Assembly (NCBI RefSeq): GCF_003018235.1
Contig: NZ_CP027439.1
Reading direction: 5' to 3' (one strand)
DNA length: 64,000 nucleotides
Source of the DNA: Escherichia coli
GTDB taxonomy: Bacteria; Pseudomonadota; Gammaproteobacteria; Enterobacterales; Enterobacteriaceae
Shown here in pieces: positions 16,626 through 33,410 of the stretch. The notes under the pieces are model-generated. The model did no database searches. It was not told where the DNA came from and saw only the letters and a program-made list of their open reading frames with translations. Within the stretch, counting starts at the first letter, position 1. Each line of letters opens with the position of its first letter. Made by a program: the position numbers and the translations under genes.

Positions 16626-16869
16626 GCTGGTTTCTGATGGCAGCGTCAAAAAAATAAATTATCCGGTGCTGTATGAGTCCGTAATAACACCTCCGTTATG
16701 TGAAGTCAGTGCACCAGAACCTGATGCGGGTGGGAAACGCATTGTGGCATATGTTTATAAATCATCACGGAATACGGTTTTTGAAAATCCTGACATTGTA
16801 AAAACCTGTACGGTCAGGGATTTGAAGAATGATTTTGTGAACTGCGATGAGAAAGGTGAGGGACAATGA
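16618..16869 (+). CDS. trbG: TrbG
   Basis: 83 aa, conserved position. Confidence 0.7.
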   Translation: MNKLVSDGSVKKINYPVLYESVITPPLCEVSAPEPDAGGKRIVAYVYKSSRNTVFENPDIVKTCTVRDLKNDFVNCDEKGEGQ

Positions 16870-17381
16870 AACAGATTTCTTTATTTATTCCTCTGCTGGG
16901 GACCTTATTACTTTCCGGCTGTGCCGGAACCAGTACGGAATTTGAGTGTAACGCCACCACATCCGATACCTGTATGACGATGGAGCAGGCCAATGAGAAG
17001 GCCAAAAAACTGGAGCAGTCCTCAGAAGCAAAGCCGGTTGCGGCATCACTGCCGCGCCTGGCTGAAGGGAACTTCCGGACAATGCCGGTGCAGACCGTCA
17101 CCGCGACCACTCCGTCCGGCAGCGGGCCTGTAGTGACTGCACTTCCGGAGCAGAAACTGCTGGCACCACGCCCGCTGTTTACCGCTGCCCGGGAAGTGAA
17201 AACGGTTGTTCCGGTCAGCTCAGTTGCGCCGGTAACGCCTCCCCGTCCGTTAAGAACGGGTGAGCAGACGGCAGCATTATGGATAGCACCATATATTGAT
17301 AATCAGGATGTTTATCATCAGCCATCCAGTGTGTTTTTTGTTATTAAACCATCTGCGTGGGGAAAACCACGTATTAATTAA
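16866..17381 (+). CDS. traV: Outer-membrane lipoprotein TraV
   Basis: 171 aa with lipobox LLLSGCAG. Confidence 0.9.
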   Translation: MKQISLFIPLLGTLLLSGCAGTSTEFECNATTSDTCMTMEQANEKAKKLEQSSEAKPVAASLPRLAEGNFRTMPVQTVTATTPSGSGPVVTALPEQKLLAPRPLFTAAREVKTVVPVSSVAPVTPPRPLRTGEQTAALWIAPYIDNQDVYHQPSSVFFVIKPSAWGKPRIN

Positions 17382-17515
17382 CTGGCCCTGAAGTTGTATA
17401 TCAGCCGGCAATGCCGGCGGGCTTTCTGTATTCAAAATCTGCCTGTAAAACGAGTGCCCTGTGCGTGAAAAGGGATGGGCGGTAGCGTGTCAGAACATGT
17501 CGGGAGGAATATTCC

Positions 17516-17737
17516 GTGAGTGATGAAGCCGATGAAGCATATTCAGTGACAGAACAGATGACCATGACAGGAATAAACCGGATACGCCAGAAAATAAATG
17601 CTCATGGTATTCCTGTTTATCTCTGTGAAGCATGCGGTAATCCTATTCCGGAAGCCCGGCGGAAAATATTTCCCGGTGTGACGTTATGTGTTGAATGTCA
17701 GGCGGATCAGGAAAGGCAGAGGAAACACTATGCATAA
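17516..17737 (+). CDS. traR: TraR (DksA/TraR-family C4 zinc finger)
   Basis: 73 aa with CEACGNPIP...CVECQ. Confidence 0.88.
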   Translation: MSDEADEAYSVTEQMTMTGINRIRQKINAHGIPVYLCEACGNPIPEARRKIFPGVTLCVECQADQERQRKHYA

Positions 17738-18203
17738 ATCAGAAACTGAAAAAATAGATTCTATCCTGGATGAACATCAACAGATATATCGCAGACATAA
17801 CCGAATAGATAACATCCTGGCGTTTTTTGCGTGTATTGCATGGATTCCCTGTATTATTGCTGCGTTCGGCGTTGATGGTATATATCTGAAAATCCTGTTT
17901 GCGGTCCTTGCCTGCTGTGGTGCGGTATGCTTTTTTATTTTCTTCTTCACCCTCCTGCCGGAATCACTCATGGTCCTCAGCCGTCAGAGCCTGCTTCAGC
18001 TTATGCGTCTGACTGAAGACGTACCGGATGCGAGACAGGAACTGCTTAACCGTCTGCTGTCCGGTAAAAAACTGACTGGTCGGAATGAAAAGGATATCCG
18101 GCGTCTCTGGCAGGATAAAGTGGATGCAATGCAGGAGTCTGCCACCCGTCAGCGTGAACAGGATACCATTCGGAAGTTTGCTGAAGAGAGTAAATCTGAA
18201 TGA
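17730..18203 (+). CDS. Hypothetical membrane protein between traR and traC
   Basis: ORF from MHKSETEKIDS with two predicted transmembrane segments. Confidence 0.55.
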   Translation: MHKSETEKIDSILDEHQQIYRRHNRIDNILAFFACIAWIPCIIAAFGVDGIYLKILFAVLACCGAVCFFIFFFTLLPESLMVLSRQSLLQLMRLTEDVPDARQELLNRLLSGKKLTGRNEKDIRRLWQDKVDAMQESATRQREQDTIRKFAEESKSE

Positions 18204-18282
18204 AAATCTGCTGTGTTTTATAACCTCATAAGTTAACTGAAGGAATATTCAGTGATTAATATTTAACTGGAGGTAATAAAGA

Positions 18283-18417
18283 ATGCATACCTTTATCTTT
18301 CTTGTGCTGATGAAAAATGTTGGCGGTGGTGGTATCTGGAATATTACACCCATGCCAAATACGGATGTATGTGCACAGATCCTTCGGAGAATAGAAGCGC
18401 GTGGAGGCAGGGCTTAG
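18283..18417 (+). CDS. Small ORF (44 aa) with strong RBS
   Basis: GGAGG 11 nt upstream of the ATG; hydrophobic N-terminus MHTFIFLVLM; below the ORF-track size cut-off. Confidence 0.35.
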   Translation: MHTFIFLVLMKNVGGGGIWNITPMPNTDVCAQILRRIEARGGRA

Positions 18418-18527
18418 GAAATTCAGGGGAGTGTATTGAAGTTAAAACAAATGAACCTTTGAACAACGTGATGGAAACACTGAATGGTGATGGGCAATGA
18501 GTGCTTACTGCTTCGAAGGAAAATGAA

Positions 18528-18890
18528 ATGAAGTCGATATATTTAAAATCTGTTCTGGCTTTTATATTTGTTGGCGTTATGGCTATGTTGATATGTGGTC
18601 TTTTTTACAATGATTACCTTGAGCAACAACCTGCAACACCAGAACAACTGACAGAGATTACACAGGATATCCCCTGTGCAGCAGAAGCATTTAAGGAAGC
18701 TATTAAGTCTGACACATCTGATTATCAGCCTGAACCTTTAAGTCTTGGTAAGGCAAAAGAGCTTGCATCAGCGTGTAGAGAAAGAAACGAAATGGCAGAG
18801 GTGAAACGGGTAAGAGAAAATGAGCGCAATAAGATTCGCGAAAAACAAATTCAGGCATTAAATGATGCTCATTCAGTAAAGGAACGTTAA
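18528..18890 (+). CDS. Hypothetical membrane-anchored protein upstream of traC
   Basis: MKSIYLKSVLAFIFVGVMAMLICGLF N-terminal transmembrane anchor. Confidence 0.55.
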   Translation: MKSIYLKSVLAFIFVGVMAMLICGLFYNDYLEQQPATPEQLTEITQDIPCAAEAFKEAIKSDTSDYQPEPLSLGKAKELASACRERNEMAEVKRVRENERNKIREKQIQALNDAHSVKER

Positions 18891-19015
18891 TCCTGGTTTC
18901 CTGTTAAAAGCCTCCATCTCTTATTTGTGCTGTGGTTTCAGGAATGGCACTGCGTGATATATCCACGGCCACAGACTGATATTTTCCTTTTTTAAACGCA
19001 CTAAGGAATACTCAT

Positions 19016-21646
19016 ATGAGTAATAACCCACTTGAGGCCGTCACTCAGGCGGTTAACTCCCTCGTCACAGCACTGAAACTGCCTGACGAATCAGCAAAGG
19101 CCAATGAAGTGCTGGGCGAAATGAGCTTCCCGCAGTTCAGCCGTCTGCTGCCGTACCGTGATTACAACCAGGAATCCGGTCTGTTCATGAATGACACCAC
19201 GATGGGCTTTATGCTGGAAGCCATTCCCATCAATGGGGCGAATGAGTCCATTGTGGAGGCCCTCGATCATATGCTGCGCACCAAACTGCCGCGCGGTATT
19301 CCGTTGTGTATCCATCTGATGTCCAGTCAGCTGGTTGGTGACAGGATTGAATACGGGCTGCGTGAGTTCTCCTGGTCTGGCGAACAGGCCGAACGGTTTA
19401 ACGCCATTACCCGTGCCTATTATATGAAAGCGGCAGCGACACAGTTTCCGCTGCCGGAGGGGATGAATCTGCCCCTGACCCTGCGCCATTACCGGGTGTT
19501 TATCTCGTACTGTTCTCCCTCGAAGAAAAAAAGCCGGGCTGACATTCTGGAAATGGAAAATCTGGTGAAAATCATCCGTGCCTCTTTTCACGGCGCAAAA
19601 ATCACCACACAGACAGTGGATGCACAGGCTTTCATCGAGATTGTCGGGGAGATGATTAACCATAATCCGGACTCTCTGTACCCGAAAAGACGTCAGCTGG
19701 ACCCGTATTCTGATCTGAATTATCAGTGTGTGGAGGACAGTTTTGATCTGAAGGTCCGGGCGGATTACCTGACGCTGGGGCTGCGTGAGAACGGCAGGAA
19801 CAGCACAGCCCGTATCCTGAATTTCCATCTGGCCCGTAACCCGGAAATCGCCTTCCTGTGGAACATGGCCGATAACTACAGCAATCTGCTGAACCCGGAA
19901 ATGTCCATTTCCTGCCCGTTCATCCTGACGCTGACACTGGTGGTGGAAGATCAGGTGAAAACCCACAGTGAAGCCAACCTGAAGTACATGGACCTGGAGA
20001 AAAAGTCGAAGACCTCCTATGCCAAATGGTTTCCGTCCGTGGAGAAAGAGGCGAAGGAGTGGGGGGAACTGCGCCAGCGGCTGGGCTCCGGTCAGTCTTC
20101 TGTCGTGTCCTACTTCCTTAACATCACAGCATTCTGCAAGGATAACAATGAAACGGCTCTGGAAGTGGAGCAGGACATTCTGAACAGCTTTCGTAAAAAC
20201 GGTTTTGAGCTGATTTCACCGCGCTTTAACCACATGCGCAATTTCCTGACCTGCCTGCCCTTTATGGCCGGGAAAGGGCTGTTTAAACAGCTGAAAGAGG
20301 CCGGTGTGGTTCAGCGCGCAGAGAGCTTTAATGTGGCCAACCTGATGCCGTTAGTGGCGGATAACCCCCTGACACCGGCAGGCCTGCTGGCACCCACCTA
20401 CCGTAACCAGCTGGCGTTTATCGATATCTTCTTTAAGGGGATGAATAACACCAACTACAACATGGCGGTCTGTGGCACCTCCGGGGCCGGTAAAACCGGG
20501 CTGATACAGCCACTTATCCGCAGCGTGCTGGACTCCGGGGGCTTTGCCGTGGTGTTCGACATGGGGGATGGCTACAAGTCTTTGTGTGAGAACATGGGGG
20601 GCGTATATCTGGACGGTGAAACCCTGCGCTTTAACCCGTTTGCGAACATCACTGATATTGACCAGTCAGCGGAGCGTGTCCGTGACCAGTTGTCGGTGAT
20701 GGCCAGCCCCAACGGTAACCTGGATGAAGTGCATGAAGGTCTGTTGCTGCAGGCGGTCAGAGCCTCCTGGCTGGCTAAAAAGAAGCAGGCGCGCATTGAT
20801 GATGTGGTGGATTTCCTGAAAAACGCCCGTGATAACGACCAGTATGTCGAGTCACCGACCATCCGCAGCCGTCTGGACGAAATGATTGTGCTGCTTGACC
20901 AGTACACTGCCAACGGCACTTACGGCCGGTATTTTAACTCTGATGAACCGTCCCTACGGGATGATGCCAGAATGGTGGTGCTGGAGCTGGGCGGACTGGA
21001 AGACCGTCCGTCACTGCTGGTTGCGGTGATGTTCAGCCTTATCATTTACATCGAGAACCGGATGTACCGCACGCCGCGTAACCTCAAGAAACTGAACGTC
21101 ATTGATGAAGGCTGGCGTCTGCTGGACTTCAAAAATCGTAAAGTTGGTGAGTTTATTCAAAAAGGTTACCGCACCTGTCGCCGTCATACCGGTGCCTATA
21201 TCACCATCACACAGAACATCGTCGACTTTGACTCTGACAAGGCATCCAGCGCAGCCCGTGCGGCATGGGGTAACTCCTCCTACAAAATTATCCTCAAACA
21301 GAGTGCGAAGGAGTTCGCGAAATATAACCAGTTATTCCCGGATCAGTTCCAGCCACTGCAGCGCGACATGATTGGTAAGTTTGGTGCGGCCAAAGACCAG
21401 TGGTTCAGTTCCTTCCTGCTGCAGGTGGAAAACCATTCCTCCTGGCACCGTCTGTTTGTGGACCCGTTAAGCCGTGCCATGTACAGCTCTGACGGCCCGG
21501 ATTTTGAGTTTGTGCAGCAGAAACGCAGAGAGGGTATGAGTATTCATGAGGCGGTGTGGCAGCTGGCGTGGAAGAAATCGGGGCCGGAGATGGCTTCGCT
21601 GGAGGCCTGGCTGGAAGAACATGAGAAATACAGGAGTGTTGCATGA
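19016..21646 (+). CDS. traC: T4SS ATPase TraC (VirB4 family)
   Basis: 876 aa with Walker A GTSGAGKT. Confidence 0.95.
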   Translation: MSNNPLEAVTQAVNSLVTALKLPDESAKANEVLGEMSFPQFSRLLPYRDYNQESGLFMNDTTMGFMLEAIPINGANESIVEALDHMLRTKLPRGIPLCIHLMSSQLVGDRIEYGLREFSWSGEQAERFNAITRAYYMKAAATQFPLPEGMNLPLTLRHYRVFISYCSPSKKKSRADILEMENLVKIIRASFHGAKITTQTVDAQAFIEIVGEMINHNPDSLYPKRRQLDPYSDLNYQCVEDSFDLKVRADYLTLGLRENGRNSTARILNFHLARNPEIAFLWNMADNYSNLLNPEMSISCPFILTLTLVVEDQVKTHSEANLKYMDLEKKSKTSYAKWFPSVEKEAKEWGELRQRLGSGQSSVVSYFLNITAFCKDNNETALEVEQDILNSFRKNGFELISPRFNHMRNFLTCLPFMAGKGLFKQLKEAGVVQRAESFNVANLMPLVADNPLTPAGLLAPTYRNQLAFIDIFFKGMNNTNYNMAVCGTSGAGKTGLIQPLIRSVLDSGGFAVVFDMGDGYKSLCENMGGVYLDGETLRFNPFANITDIDQSAERVRDQLSVMASPNGNLDEVHEGLLLQAVRASWLAKKKQARIDDVVDFLKNARDNDQYVESPTIRSRLDEMIVLLDQYTANGTYGRYFNSDEPSLRDDARMVVLELGGLEDRPSLLVAVMFSLIIYIENRMYRTPRNLKKLNVIDEGWRLLDFKNRKVGEFIQKGYRTCRRHTGAYITITQNIVDFDSDKASSAARAAWGNSSYKIILKQSAKEFAKYNQLFPDQFQPLQRDMIGKFGAAKDQWFSSFLLQVENHSSWHRLFVDPLSRAMYSSDGPDFEFVQQKRREGMSIHEAVWQLAWKKSGPEMASLEAWLEEHEKYRSVA

Positions 21647-30082: not shown

Positions 30083-32904
30083 ATGAAGTTTATGTGATTG
30101 CCGGTGGTGAGTGGTTGCGGAATAACCTGAACGCCATTGCCGCTTTTATGGGAACCAGGACGTGGGATTCCATTGAAAAAATTGCGCTCACATTGTCTGT
30201 TCTCGCGGTGGCCGTGATGTGGGTACAGCGGCACAACGTGATGGATTTGCTGGGCTGGGTGGCCGTGTTTGTGCTTATCAGCCTGCTGGTTAATGTCCGC
30301 ACATCGGTGCAGATTATTGATAACAGTGACCTGGTCAAAGTTCACCGGGTGGATAATGTGCCGGTCGGACTGGCGATGCCACTTTCACTGACGACCCGTA
30401 TCGGGCATGCAATGGTGGCCAGTTACGAGATGATCTTCACGCAACCGGACAGTGTCACCTACAGCAAAACGGGGATGCTGTTTGGCGCAGAACTGGTATC
30501 AAAAAGCACCGACTTTTTGTCCCGGAATCCGGAAATCGCCAATCTTTTCCAGGATTATGTGCAGAACTGCGTGATGGGGGATATTTACCTGAACCACAAA
30601 TATACGCTGGAGGAGCTGATGGCCTCCGCTGATCCCTACACGCTGATTTTTTCCCGCCCCAGCCCGCTGCGGGGCGTTTATGACAGCAATAATAATTTCG
30701 TAACCTGTAAGGACGCTTCGGTTTCGCTGAAAGACAAGCTGAATCTGGACACACAGAGTGGCGGAAAAACCTGGCATTATTATGCCCAGCAGCTATTTGG
30801 CGGACGCCCTGATCCTAACCTGCTGTTCAGTACGCTGATTGGCGACAGTTACAGTTACTTCTATGGCTCAAGTAAATCAGCCAGCCAGATCATCCGCCAG
30901 AATGTCACCATCAATGCGCTGAAGGAGGGGATCACCAGTTATGCCGCACGTAATGGTGATTCGGCCAGCCTGGTGAATCTGGCCACCACATCATCGATGG
31001 AGAAGCAACGTCTGGCACATGTCTCCATCGGTCATGTGGCGATGCGGACACTGCCCATGACGCAGACCATCCTGACGGGGATCGCCATCGGTATTTTCCC
31101 GCTCCTGGTACTGGCGGCTGTCTTCAACAAACTGACGCTGTCCGTCCTGAAAGGCTATGTGTTTGCCCTGATGTGGTTGCAGTCATGGCCAATGTTGTAC
31201 GCCATTCTGAACAGCGCCATGACATTTTATGCAAAGCAGAATGGTGCACCGGTGGTGCTCTCGGAAATTTCACAGATACAGCTGAAATACTCCGATCTGG
31301 CTTCCACTGCCGGGTATCTTTCCATGATGATCCCGCCATTATCCTGGATGATGGTCAGGGGGCTCGGGGCAGGATTTTCCAGTGTGTACAGCCATTTCGC
31401 TTCCTCTGCTATCAGCCCGACCGCCAGTGCAGCAGGCAGTGTGGTTGACGGTAATTACTCCTACGGCAACATGCAGACGGAGAACGTTAACGGCTTCAGC
31501 TGGAGCACCAACAGCACCACGTCGTTTGGTCAGATGATGTACCAGACCGGCAGTGGCGCAACCGCCACACAGACCCGTGACGGTAATATGGTGATGGATG
31601 CAAGCGGAGCGATGTCCCGGTTACCGGTCGGCATCAATGCAACGCGTCAGATTGCGGCGGCACAACAGGAAATGGCCCGGGAAGCATCGAACAGAGCAGA
31701 AAGTGCCCTGCATGGGTTCAGCAGCAGTATTGCCAGTGCCTGGAACACGCTCAGTCAGTTTGGTTCTAACCGGGGGAGCAGTGATTCTGTCACCGGTGGT
31801 GCTGACAGCACGATGAGTGCTCAGGACTCCATGATGGCCAGCCGTATGCGCAGTGCAGTGGAAAGCTATGCGAAGGCGCATAATATCAGTAATGAGCAGG
31901 CGACTCAGGAACTGGCATCAACAAGTACCAGGCTATCTGGTGGAATGTATGCTGATGCTCATGCTGAATGGGGGGTTAAACCTAAAATTCTTGGTGTTGG
32001 TGGTGGGGTAGGCATCAGAGGTGGATTTAAGGGGAGCCTGGATGCAACGGATGATGACTCACATTCAGCAAGTAGTGGCAGCAGGGCTACCCATGATGCT
32101 CGCCATGATATCGATGCTAAAGCCAGTAAGGACTTTAAAGAGGCCAGCGATTACTTTACCAGTCGCAAGGTCAGTGAATCCGGCAGCCATACGGACAATA
32201 ATGCCGATTCCCGTGTGGACCAGCTGTCTGCAGCCCTGAACTCAGCAAAACAGAGTTACGACCAGTACACGACGAATATGACCCGCAGCCATGAATATGC
32301 TGAAATGGCATCCCGTACTGAAAGCATGAGTGGGCAGATGAGTGAAGACCTGTCGCAACAGTTTGCACAGTATGTGATGAAACACGCGCCGCAGGATGCC
32401 GAAGCTATTCTGACAAACACCAGTTCACCGGAGATTGCAGAACGCCGTCGGGCGATGGCATGGTCTTTTGTTCAGGAACAGGTGCAGCCTGGTGTTGATA
32501 ATGCCTGGCGTGAATCCCGTGGGGATATTGGTAAAGGAATGGAGAGCGTACCTTCGGGTGGTGGCAGCCAGGATATTATTGCTGACCATCAGGGGCATCA
32601 GGCCATTATTGATCAAAGAACGCAGGACAGTAATATCCGTAATGATGTAAAACATCAGGTTGATAATATGGTCACAGAATATAAAGGGAATATCGGAGAT
32701 ACTCAGAATAGTATTCATGGCGAAGAAAATATTGTAGACAGACAATATTCAGAGTTAAAAAATAATCACAAACAGGAAGAAATTCAACAAAACAACAGAT
32801 ATAATGAAGAAAATAAACGACAGAAATTAATGCCAACACCGTCTGAAGATGCGTTAAAACAGATGGTGGATGATAAGAAAGAACGATTGAAGGGGCCATT
32901 ATGA
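30079..32904 (+). CDS. traG: TraG (mating-pair stabilisation / entry exclusion)
   Basis: 941 aa, polytopic N-terminal domain. Confidence 0.92.
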   Translation: MNEVYVIAGGEWLRNNLNAIAAFMGTRTWDSIEKIALTLSVLAVAVMWVQRHNVMDLLGWVAVFVLISLLVNVRTSVQIIDNSDLVKVHRVDNVPVGLAMPLSLTTRIGHAMVASYEMIFTQPDSVTYSKTGMLFGAELVSKSTDFLSRNPEIANLFQDYVQNCVMGDIYLNHKYTLEELMASADPYTLIFSRPSPLRGVYDSNNNFVTCKDASVSLKDKLNLDTQSGGKTWHYYAQQLFGGRPDPNLLFSTLIGDSYSYFYGSSKSASQIIRQNVTINALKEGITSYAARNGDSASLVNLATTSSMEKQRLAHVSIGHVAMRTLPMTQTILTGIAIGIFPLLVLAAVFNKLTLSVLKGYVFALMWLQSWPMLYAILNSAMTFYAKQNGAPVVLSEISQIQLKYSDLASTAGYLSMMIPPLSWMMVRGLGAGFSSVYSHFASSAISPTASAAGSVVDGNYSYGNMQTENVNGFSWSTNSTTSFGQMMYQTGSGATATQTRDGNMVMDASGAMSRLPVGINATRQIAAAQQEMAREASNRAESALHGFSSSIASAWNTLSQFGSNRGSSDSVTGGADSTMSAQDSMMASRMRSAVESYAKAHNISNEQATQELASTSTRLSGGMYADAHAEWGVKPKILGVGGGVGIRGGFKGSLDATDDDSHSASSGSRATHDARHDIDAKASKDFKEASDYFTSRKVSESGSHTDNNADSRVDQLSAALNSAKQSYDQYTTNMTRSHEYAEMASRTESMSGQMSEDLSQQFAQYVMKHAPQDAEAILTNTSSPEIAERRRAMAWSFVQEQVQPGVDNAWRESRGDIGKGMESVPSGGGSQDIIADHQGHQAIIDQRTQDSNIRNDVKHQVDNMVTEYKGNIGDTQNSIHGEENIVDRQYSELKNNHKQEEIQQNNRYNEENKRQKLMPTPSEDALKQMVDDKKERLKGPL

Positions 32905-33410
32905 TCACTCACTATGATATAAAAATGGAGATGCAAAAACTAAAGGAGGTACTCTCTGTAGAGGGTGTTAATATCCCATCATTATTACAAGTCATAAAAC
33001 CGGGAACTTATGTGTTTTTATGGGCTTTATTATGGCCAACTTTTCTGCGTTTAGTATCGGTTAAAAGTGATGTCAGGGATGTTGGCTTTGATATATGTGC
33101 TAGTGGAATGATGGGGTTCCTGCTTTTTGTGGCTATTACAAATGGAATGATGTTATACCTTGCGATTCCTGATAGTTTCAGAAAGGATTCAAAAATAATA
33201 AATTTTATGTATTCTAAGAGTAAGACATATATTTTGTTGTTTTTGATTGTTTTTTCTATGGTTTCATTTATGCATTCTATCTTATATGTTTTTGCACTAA
33301 TGATTACATTCATATTATTTTTCTTGGTGTATACCATAGATATAAATCGTTATAATCTCTCAGCTATAGCCTCAGTAATAGGACTGTTCAAAAAAGAGTC
33401 TGTTAGTTAA
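32901..33410 (+). CDS. traS: Entry exclusion protein TraS
   Basis: AT-rich, hydrophobic 169-aa ORF between traG and traT. Confidence 0.75.

Follow-up and report, generated by a model that had tools for sequence, protein, structure and literature searches.

The traR-traC interval of an Escherichia coli plasmid is an R100-type yfiA-yfiB-yfiC block with a frameshifted yfiB

Introduction

TraP, TrbD, TrbG, TraR, TrbE, TrbA and TrbJ of plasmid F are short, often membrane-associated proteins that are encoded in the tra operon and are dispensable for transfer in the laboratory. In R100 (NR1) and R100-like IncFII plasmids, the interval between traR and traC is occupied by the genes yfhA, yfiA, yfiB and yfiC. 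These genes have been listed in the R100 transfer backbone, and YfhA has been noted as missing from plasmid F (PMC2762410; PMC5052281). In the literature that we searched on the traR-traC interval, yfiA/yfiB, YfiC and F-like comparative genomics, the names were only mentioned, and a functional study was not found.

Here, we analyzed the traR-traC interval in a stretch of 64,000 nucleotides from an Escherichia coli plasmid (NCBI RefSeq assembly GCF_003018235.1, contig NZ_CP027439.1), hereafter referred to as the window. The initial annotation of this DNA had pointed out three uncharacterized ORFs in the interval, one of them a 44-aa ORF with a strong ribosome-binding site, and had proposed that they could be accessory or cargo functions. 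The three ORFs share their position and gene order with the R100-type genes, and the second (ORF2) matches the 72-aa middle gene of that set. R100-type plasmids, however, have yfhA and yfiA in tandem, whereas the window plasmid has a single copy (ORF1) and a frameshifted yfiB. Like the small Tra/Trb proteins of plasmid F, the three ORF products are short, often membrane-associated and encoded inside the long tra operon, but they have no sequence relationship to those proteins (no Pfam or NCBIfam match), and the ORFs are absent from F.

The interval between traR and traC

The features of the interval are as follows.

17516..17737, + strand: traR (context), matched by NCBIfam PRK13715 (E 3e-52) and Pfam zf-dskA_traR
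17730..18203, + strand: ORF1, an intact gene of the yfiA/yfhA family (157 aa), assigned by similarity to cluster P0001 and by alignments
18269..18273, + strand: GGAGG, the Shine-Dalgarno sequence of yfiB, which precedes the ATG at 18283 by 9 nt
18283..18500, + strand: yfiB pseudogene, an ancestral ORF of 72 aa that is frameshifted, from alignment with intact L001, L005 and L015
18283..18417, + strand: the 44-aa ORF (ORF2), which is the 5' part of yfiB
18410..18412, + strand: site of the 1-bp deletion in the alignment, a G3 run that is G4 in every intact relative
18414..18500, + strand: out-of-frame 3' remainder of yfiB
18528..18890, + strand: ORF3, intact yfiC (120 aa), assigned by similarity to cluster P0122, alignment A5 and hydropathy
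19016..21646, + strand: traC (context), labelled traC in all relatives

The three ORFs are present where they had been annotated, on the strand of the tra operon, and traR and traC are spaced 1,278 bp apart. The interval holds yfiA-yfiB-yfiC, an accessory block of the R100 type known from F-like tra operons. ORF1 is 95% identical over 100% of its length to cluster P0001 (1,010 members), has 146 homolog clusters at E <= 0.01 and shows 65-96% identity to CDSs labelled yfiA, a label that is also carried by its positional ortholog in two of the loci (L003 and L011). ORF3 is 98% identical to P0122, whose UniRef name is "YfiC protein". Clusters at least 95% identical to ORF1 and ORF3 comprise hundreds to thousands of members, all of them from Enterobacteriaceae plasmids. 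The three ORFs have long been catalogued in R100-type F-like plasmids, and what the initial annotation had singled out is largely ordinary.

The interval had been described as variable among F-like plasmids, and this was borne out: the block is present in 1,168 of the 3,548 PLSDB plasmids that match its flanks, most of the others have the short F-type junction, and versions with four, three, two or no ORFs occur. About 1,200 plasmids that share the block annotate its products as hypothetical proteins. The three ORFs are indeed uncharacterized, being "hypothetical" in every source, and scans with Pfam, NCBIfam, PADLOC and PHROGs gave no significant match for any of them. None reached the cut-off of the curated Pfam/NCBIfam Tra/Trb accessory families (best E-values 0.007-0.2, well short of the thresholds). 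Against PADLOC-DB, the hydrophobic region of ORF1 gave a non-significant match to REase_II (13.9 bits, E 0.0057), with none for ORF2 and ORF3, and structure searches returned generic helical or ferredoxin-like matches only.

Co-transcription with the T4SS genes, which had also been suggested, is consistent with the sequence: the genes lie on one strand and are tightly packed, and the ATG of ORF1 at 17730 sits within the final codons of traR, which ends at 17737. A start that overlaps traR or directly adjoins its 3' end is also found in L001-L008, L017 and L018. Within 16800-19300, neither a sigma-70 promoter nor a convincing terminator was found and an Rfam scan gave no match, and the traV-traR and yfiC-traC spacers gave RNA folds that did not improve on those of shuffled sequences (z -0.5 and -0.2).

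A one-base deletion in yfiB

The GGAGG ahead of the 44-aa ORF is real and well spaced, but the ORF is not the separate small gene as which it had been listed. It corresponds to the first 60% of the 72-73-aa yfiB, cut by a 1-bp deletion (GGCAGGGGC -> GGCAGGGC at 18410-18412), and the resulting frameshift makes a stop at 18415-18417 and hence the 44-aa product. A stop at this codon was found in no aligned relative, and every intact copy has 72-73 codons. Because the stop arises from a frameshift private to the window sequence, the 44-aa ORF does not count as an independent gene. When one G is added to the window sequence, a full-length 72-aa homolog is obtained on translation, and its first 43 residues equal those of the intact 72-aa yfiB of L015, which belongs to the same allele class, except for V31A.

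Between Escherichia and Klebsiella copies, yfiB has a dN/dS of 0.10-0.14. It was found by tblastn in 3,601 plasmids, 97% of them conjugative, and yfiB-like genes occur in approximately 5% of PLSDB plasmids. The Shine-Dalgarno sequence varies among relatives (GGCGG, GGAGA, GGGGG). The AF2 model of YfiB (beta-beta-alpha-beta-alpha, pLDDT 80.5) predicts a soluble alpha/beta fold for the intact protein, from which the truncation would take away strand beta3 and helix alpha2. We also considered a signal peptide at the N-terminus, which is not favoured: the hydrophobic run is just 8 residues long, there is no basic n-region, AxA site or lipobox, and AF2 places the N-terminus as core strand beta1, with a pLDDT of 90 for the first 10 residues. 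The position of yfiB immediately upstream of traC is kept in two diverged F-like lineages. In Klebsiella, the gene stands beside unrelated neighbours, and the possibility that these are diverged ORF1 and ORF3 was ruled out (BLAST E > 0.6).

The G-run deletion inactivates yfiB in the window plasmid, with a homopolymer sequencing error as a possible alternative. Relatives carry at least five distinct lesions in yfiB (one premature stop, one lost start codon and three 1-bp deletions that differ from one another), which differ from the deletion in the window and are independent of it, and the 219-nt yfiB of the nearest relative is annotated as a pseudogene by PGAP. If the missing G were a sequencing or assembly error, yfiB would be intact in the actual plasmid; we give this rather little weight. 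The lesion is indeed the loss of one base from a G4 run, and many of the lesions in relatives are likewise homopolymer deletions, such as the A6 -> A5 deletion in L003, L025, L026, L028 and L029. However, relatives also have lesions outside homopolymers (GAA -> TAA and ATG -> ATA). In addition, the window copy has two private residues, A31 and D70, which are absent from 16 homologs and one of which lies downstream of the shift, with zero synonymous differences from L015; although the numbers are small, this pattern fits relaxed selection on the window yfiB. That the 44-aa ORF is instead a true gene for a small protein with a separate function, translated from the GGAGG, is highly improbable despite the good Shine-Dalgarno sequence and the well-conserved 43 N-terminal residues, as its stop is owed solely to the private deletion, conservation spans the full 72-73-aa frame, beta3 and alpha2 of the predicted fold are missing, and comparable disruptions are treated as pseudogenes by PGAP.

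Loss of the block from plasmid F

Homology between the window and plasmid F extends through traR (96% identity), ends at position 17742 and restarts at 19000. In plasmid F, the 140-bp spacer aligns, across two reading frames, with codons 1-46 of ORF1 homologs (E 1e-11 and 2e-5); read from this alignment, plasmid F holds only a frameshifted 46-codon ORF1 remnant of the block. The remnant indicates that the block has long belonged to the tra operon and was lost from F, rather than having been inserted. The suggestion that the ORFs might be cargo is accordingly weakened, and we reject inserted cargo as an explanation of the block. Since the block is deleted in plasmid F, the yfi genes are dispensable for DNA transfer, and this deletion is the probable reason why classical tra genetics never met them.

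As judged from the gene content of related loci, the three genes have been gained and lost independently: ORF1 stands alone in L017, ORF1 and ORF2 occur together in L007, and L004, L008 and L015 have tandem copies of ORF1.

Predicted location and possible role of the three proteins

Two of the three ORFs had been annotated as membrane proteins, and hydropathy agrees, with two TM helices in ORF1 (a hydrophobic stretch of about 50 residues) and one in ORF3. The single N-terminal helix of ORF3 (about aa 8-27) has lysines ahead of it, and the C-terminal domain is acidic and helical, with C50 and C83 invariant in 26 sequences (alignment A5). From charge and hydropathy, this disulfide-capable domain is predicted to face the periplasm.

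Our best guess is that the three proteins are non-essential envelope-side modulators of conjugation. They would be made from the long tra transcript alongside the pilus-assembly genes and would act at the donor envelope as non-essential modulators, not as core parts of the T4SS. ORF1 would most likely work on the cytoplasmic side of the inner membrane, tethered there as the partner of a regulator, YfiC would most likely act in the periplasm, and the function of yfiB would have been lost in the window plasmid. Our confidence in this mechanism is low; the account as a whole, which joins it to the established identity of the block, has in our estimate a probability of roughly 0.7.

Alternatively, the three proteins may belong to the structure of the F-type T4SS or pilus machinery as accessory subunits, like TraP or TrbI, that are required under particular mating conditions, an explanation that we consider unlikely. 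The genes lie within the pilus-assembly run from traV to traC, the location of yfiB immediately before traC is shared by the two diverged F-like lineages, and a natural TraV-YfiC fusion exists (P0175). However, plasmid F builds pili and transfers without the yfi genes, the ORF1 homologs of IncI/K, IncX1 and VirB-type plasmids are located at the margin of unrelated T4SS operons or away from them, and the three genes come and go separately.

The variable hairpin of ORF1

Alignments A2 and A6 give ORF1 an N-terminal EKIxxILDEH helix, two TM helices and a C-terminal LSRxxL...RLLSGKxLTGRDE domain, and the AF2 model is all helical (pLDDT 77). Charge and hydropathy predict a hairpin in the inner membrane with both conserved ends in the cytoplasm. 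The two-TM hairpin, at about aa 28-80, is hypervariable: flanked by conserved sequence, it falls into at least five classes of divergent alleles, and in several plasmids two unlike hairpin alleles stand in tandem. The dN/dS is 1.29 in the hairpin versus 0.2-0.3 in the flanks, and dS is elevated in the hairpin as well; this value, like that of 0.76-0.95 in ORF3, would also fit weak constraint.

A further alternative is that the block, and above all ORF1, is a specificity or exclusion determinant, either a second entry-exclusion-like factor or a defence against male-specific phages at the level of the envelope, in which the variable hairpin would set allele specificity. The divergent hairpin alleles, their dN/dS and their tandem pairs speak for it, as does the likeness of ORF1 to TraS, which is small and hydrophobic too; both are inner-membrane proteins whose alleles have diverged strongly between F-like plasmids. 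On the other hand, ORF1 has no similarity to TraS (BLAST E 5), is encoded after traR and not between traG and traT, and differs in that its conserved parts are predicted to be cytoplasmic. The window already encodes TraT and its own TraS (32901-33407; NCBIfam PRK13741, E 1e-75), whose model does not match ORF1, and PADLOC gave no defence match. The predicted periplasmic loop of ORF1 is only a few residues long and would offer little surface to recognise an incoming partner. Moreover, substitutions are tolerated in TM segments and dS is elevated there as well, so that recombination among old alleles would account for the pattern just as well. We hold a specificity or exclusion function to be unlikely.

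Distribution of the ORF1 family and its gene neighbours

The ORF1 family occurs in some 2,600 sequenced plasmids of enterobacteria (about 3.6% of PLSDB) on IncF, IncI/K, IncX1 and VirB-type backbones, and the homologs across these backbones share one architecture. Neither Pfam nor NCBIfam has a model for the family (YfhA/YfiA). When the ORF1 profile was run exhaustively against 1.84 billion representative proteins, only 97 matched, and these were small proteins of the same family or fragments, except for two longer proteins (302 and 231 aa) that matched solely at the C-terminal region of ORF1. A PDB sequence search with the same profile returned nothing below E 0.3.

Members of the family usually adjoin a small regulator gene. 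In distant F-like operons, the homologs start overlapping or adjacent after traR; in VirB-type operons, they come after a NusG-like gene; and in IncI-gamma/K1 plasmids, they lie directly 3' of a ProQ/FinO-family gene. Homologs with no regulator nearby also exist, in the IncX1 locus L032 and the P0336 locus. The IncI-gamma/K1 gene, next to fopA (yafB), has 37-41% identity to ORF1 and retains its whole architecture, with the EKIxxIL-H-E helix, two TM helices and the RLLSGKxMTGRDE domain. Unlike ORF1, it is located near the replicon, directly after the ProQ/FinO-family gene and outside any T4SS operon. From its position, this homolog is probably yafA of ColIb-P9/R64; the literature lists no known function for yafA (PMC7491321).

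As the two genes overlap in a conserved arrangement, TraR is the obvious candidate partner of ORF1, a tentative pairing that reflects gene adjacency. TraR of plasmid F works without ORF1. As an analogy of working only, RseA likewise combines a membrane anchor with a conserved cytoplasmic domain and is encoded beside a small transcription factor gene. It has no homology to ORF1, however; its anchor is single-pass whereas ORF1 has a hairpin, and factor binding by ORF1 is putative.

A bolder proposal, which we regard as a long shot, is that the ORF1 family (YfhA/YfiA and probably IncI YafA) is a new class of membrane-tethered regulator partners or, through its hypervariable hairpin, a new determinant of self/non-self specificity and, separately, that yfiB is a conditionally dispensable T4SS factor. 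If so, ORF1-family partners of TraR, NusG-like and FopA/ProQ-like regulators, all plasmid-encoded and RNA-polymerase- or RNA-binding, would link plasmid gene expression to envelope status, and yfiB would be a conserved F-type T4SS factor that has been repeatedly lost in E. coli.

The window itself matters little, as its genes are catalogued hypothetical genes and its eye-catching small ORF is a broken copy. Its wider value is as a pointer to the widespread yfiB and ORF1 families, which are without a name, domain model or phenotype. Among the plasmids with yfiB-like and ORF1-family genes are the principal carriers of antibiotic resistance in E. coli and Klebsiella.

The traR–traC interval

The F-like tra operon lies on the + strand of the window, and the 1,278-bp gap between traR and traC holds three + strand ORFs, exactly where the initial annotation had placed them:

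17516–17737, +, traR (NCBIfam PRK13715, E 3e-52)
17730–18203, +, ORF1, yfhA/yfiA family, 157 aa
18269–18273, +, GGAGG, 9 nt 5' of the small-ORF ATG
18283–18417, +, 44-aa ORF, first part of yfiB
18528–18890, +, ORF3 (yfiC), 120 aa
19016–21646, +, traC (ORF call and relatives' annotation)

The ribosome-binding site ascribed to the small ORF was thus found, and hydropathy bore out the description of two membrane-protein ORFs, with two transmembrane (TM) helices in ORF1 and one in ORF3. The genes of this block are already known as hypothetical proteins: yfhA and yfiABC are named in the R100 transfer backbone, and YfhA is present in R100 and absent from F (PMC2762410, PMC5052281). No functional study of them was found in the literature. 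The window thus carries an uncharacterised block that was already catalogued, with a frameshift private to it; the initial observation is real, but the small ORF singled out there is a fragment of a pseudogene. What is left is a modest lead, namely two widespread plasmid protein families without a name or phenotype.

The ATG of ORF1 lies inside the final codons of traR, and a scan of 16800–19300 returned neither a sigma-70-like promoter nor a convincing terminator. With this layout, the proposed co-transcription with the T4SS genes is the natural reading of the tra operon, as a prediction.

A 35-nt direct repeat (17490–17524 and 18226–18260, 71% identity) places a copy of the traR translation-initiation region (GGAGGAATATTCCGTGAGTGAT) 5' of the yfiB start (GAAGGAATATTCAGTGATTAAT); this could be the trace of an ancient duplication, or chance. 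The traV–traR spacer contains a perfect GCCGGC-AAT-GCCGGC hairpin (17403–17417); the fold energy of its region did not surpass that of shuffled sequence (z -0.5), and the terminator scan did not call it.

The 44-aa ORF is a frameshifted yfiB

In relatives, the same ATG starts a 72-aa CDS, for example WP_000556751.1 of Escherichia albertii pEA32_1 (L001, 2284–2502). Alignment with these relatives showed that a G4 run has lost one G in the window, at 18410–18412 (GGCAGGGGC to GGCAGGGC). This 1-bp loss creates a TAG at 18415–18417, the remainder of the ancestral frame continues through 18414–18500, and restoring one G yields the full 72-aa homolog. The uncharacterised small ORF of the initial annotation is therefore present, but as a fragment of the 72-aa frame and not as a gene of its own. 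It is possible that the missing G is a homopolymer sequencing error. An intact yfiB of the same allele class occurs on a Salmonella Give plasmid (L015), from which the window copy has zero synonymous differences; its A31 and D70 are absent from all 16 full-length homologs. Private replacements without synonymous change would fit relaxed selection, although the numbers are small.

The full-length frame is clearly coding. By tblastn, yfiB was found in 3,601 PLSDB plasmids, 97% of them conjugative, from Klebsiella (2,344), Escherichia (951), Serratia, Raoultella, Citrobacter and Enterobacter, and dN/dS between Escherichia and Klebsiella copies was 0.10–0.14. In Klebsiella F-like plasmids, yfiB holds its position one ORF upstream of traC, among neighbours unrelated to ORF1 and ORF3. 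The traV–traC interval of these plasmids (L012, 3251–4623) has no traR and carries other small membrane ORFs beside the conserved yfiB homolog, including two paralogs of 97 and 134 aa with a common cysteine-containing HWxNDCxLLExNI...C motif.

The AlphaFold2 model of YfiB is a compact beta-beta-alpha-beta-alpha fold (pLDDT 80.5, pTM 0.66), in which the hydrophobic N-terminus is predicted to form a core strand, which makes a signal peptide less likely; beta3 and alpha2 would be missing from the 44-aa product. Searches with this fold returned nothing beyond generic ferredoxin-like matches.

Loss of yfiB is recurrent, and different lesions in it were found across relatives:

GAA to TAA, codon 38: L002 and L016, the closest plasmids (PGAP: pseudogene, 'internal stop')
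1-bp loss in an A6 run, codon 10/11: L003, L025, L026, L028, L029
1-bp loss, codon 22: L027
ATG to ATA: L008, L030

In an evenly spaced sample, 8 of 59 plasmids with the region lacked a CDS annotation over yfiB.

History of the block

As the initial annotation stated, the interval is variable among F-like plasmids: 1,168 of the 3,548 plasmids matching the flanks carry the block, and in most of the others traC follows traR within about 160 bp, as in F. Homology between F and the window ends at 17742 and restarts at 19000. The 140-bp F spacer (L010, NC_002483.1, 3575–3741) corresponds to the first 46 codons of ORF1 homologs in two frames (tblastn E 1e-11 and 2e-5) and is a decayed, frameshifted yfhA/yfiA copy. 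Given this remnant, the F-type junction derives by deletion from the R100-type arrangement, and the block is old operon content. F is fully transfer-proficient, so the block is dispensable for transfer. Some plasmids carry ORF1 alone, ORF1 with ORF2, or ORF2 among foreign neighbours, and the three genes are thus not an obligate unit.

The interval also has the appearance of a recombination mosaic, since the yfiC 3' end, spacer and traC start (18796–19100) are 98–100% identical to those of plasmid L005, whose ORF1 hairpin is only 30–70% identical to that of the window.

ORF1 alleles and family

ORF1 is 95% identical to a cluster of 1,010 members, and its family is hypothetical in every source. 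Its hydrophobic block of about 50 residues corresponds to two TM helices. In an alignment of 32 alleles, the N-terminal helix (MHKSExEKIDxILDEH) and the C-terminal domain (VLSRQxLLxLMRLTEDVPDxRQELLNRLLSGKKLTGRDE...) are conserved, and the two-TM hairpin that separates them is hypervariable and falls into at least five allele classes. When the window was compared with allele B (L005), dN/dS was 1.29 in the hairpin, where dS was also elevated, and 0.20 and 0.29 in its two flanks. The protein is predicted to have both ends in the cytoplasm, because each TM helix is bordered by basic residues on the side towards a conserved domain. Tandem ORF1 copies with different hairpin alleles occur in pHXH-4 (L004, 1731–2610), L008 (2117–2996) and L015 (525–1404); the first copy is a truncated allele B ending in the traR tail ...RQRKHYA, which points to unequal crossing-over of traR with ORF1 through a short CAGGAAA homology.

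The family occurs in 2,603 PLSDB plasmids (tblastn). A homolog of 47% identity follows traR in Salmonella Typhimurium plasmid NC_016864.1, and distant homologs lie directly 3' of traR in diverged F-like operons (L017, L018, L021), where start and stop codons often overlap. The family also extends beyond F-like plasmids. In VirB-type operons (L019, 4179–6446; L022, 1894–3914), a NusG-like gene and a small ORF precede the homolog, and a VirB1-like transglycosylase gene follows. Others lie directly 3' of a ProQ/FinO-family (FopA-like) gene near repA in IncI-gamma/K1 plasmids (L031, 3343–4510; L033, 3343–4495), and one lies close to ccdAB on an IncX1 plasmid (L032, 4001–4456). From its position, the IncI homolog is probably yafA, listed as a gene of unknown function in the FopA paper (PMC7491321). 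All these homologs have the same architecture and an RLLSGKx(L/M)TGRDE signature, and no curated Pfam or NCBIfam model matches any member.

ORF3 (yfiC)

ORF3 is 98% identical to proteins named 'YfiC protein' by UniRef and is restricted to Escherichia, Shigella and Salmonella plasmids. Two lysines precede its single N-terminal TM helix, an acidic segment follows, and C50 and C83 are invariant in 26 sequences; from these features, the C-terminal domain is predicted to be periplasmic. A natural deletion variant (P0175), in which the signal peptide and N-terminus of the TraV lipoprotein are joined to the YfiC C-terminal domain, fits this topology. Between 120-aa and 115-aa alleles, dN/dS was 0.76–0.95 overall, and one of the two compared alleles gave a lower value in the C-terminal third.

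Possible roles

The simplest account would have the products of the block translated from the tra transcript and acting as non-essential envelope-side modulators. ORF1 might have a membrane-tethered cytoplasmic role tied to a regulator, TraR being the obvious candidate: its overlap with traR is conserved, its homologs in other plasmid types lie repeatedly beside genes for small nucleic-acid-binding regulators, and its conserved domains are predicted to lie in the cytoplasm. We give this tether, whose sole basis is gene order, about one chance in four. The block products could also be structural T4SS accessories. The variable hairpin might serve in specificity or exclusion; ORF1 itself is distinct from TraS, and the window has TraS and TraT of its own.
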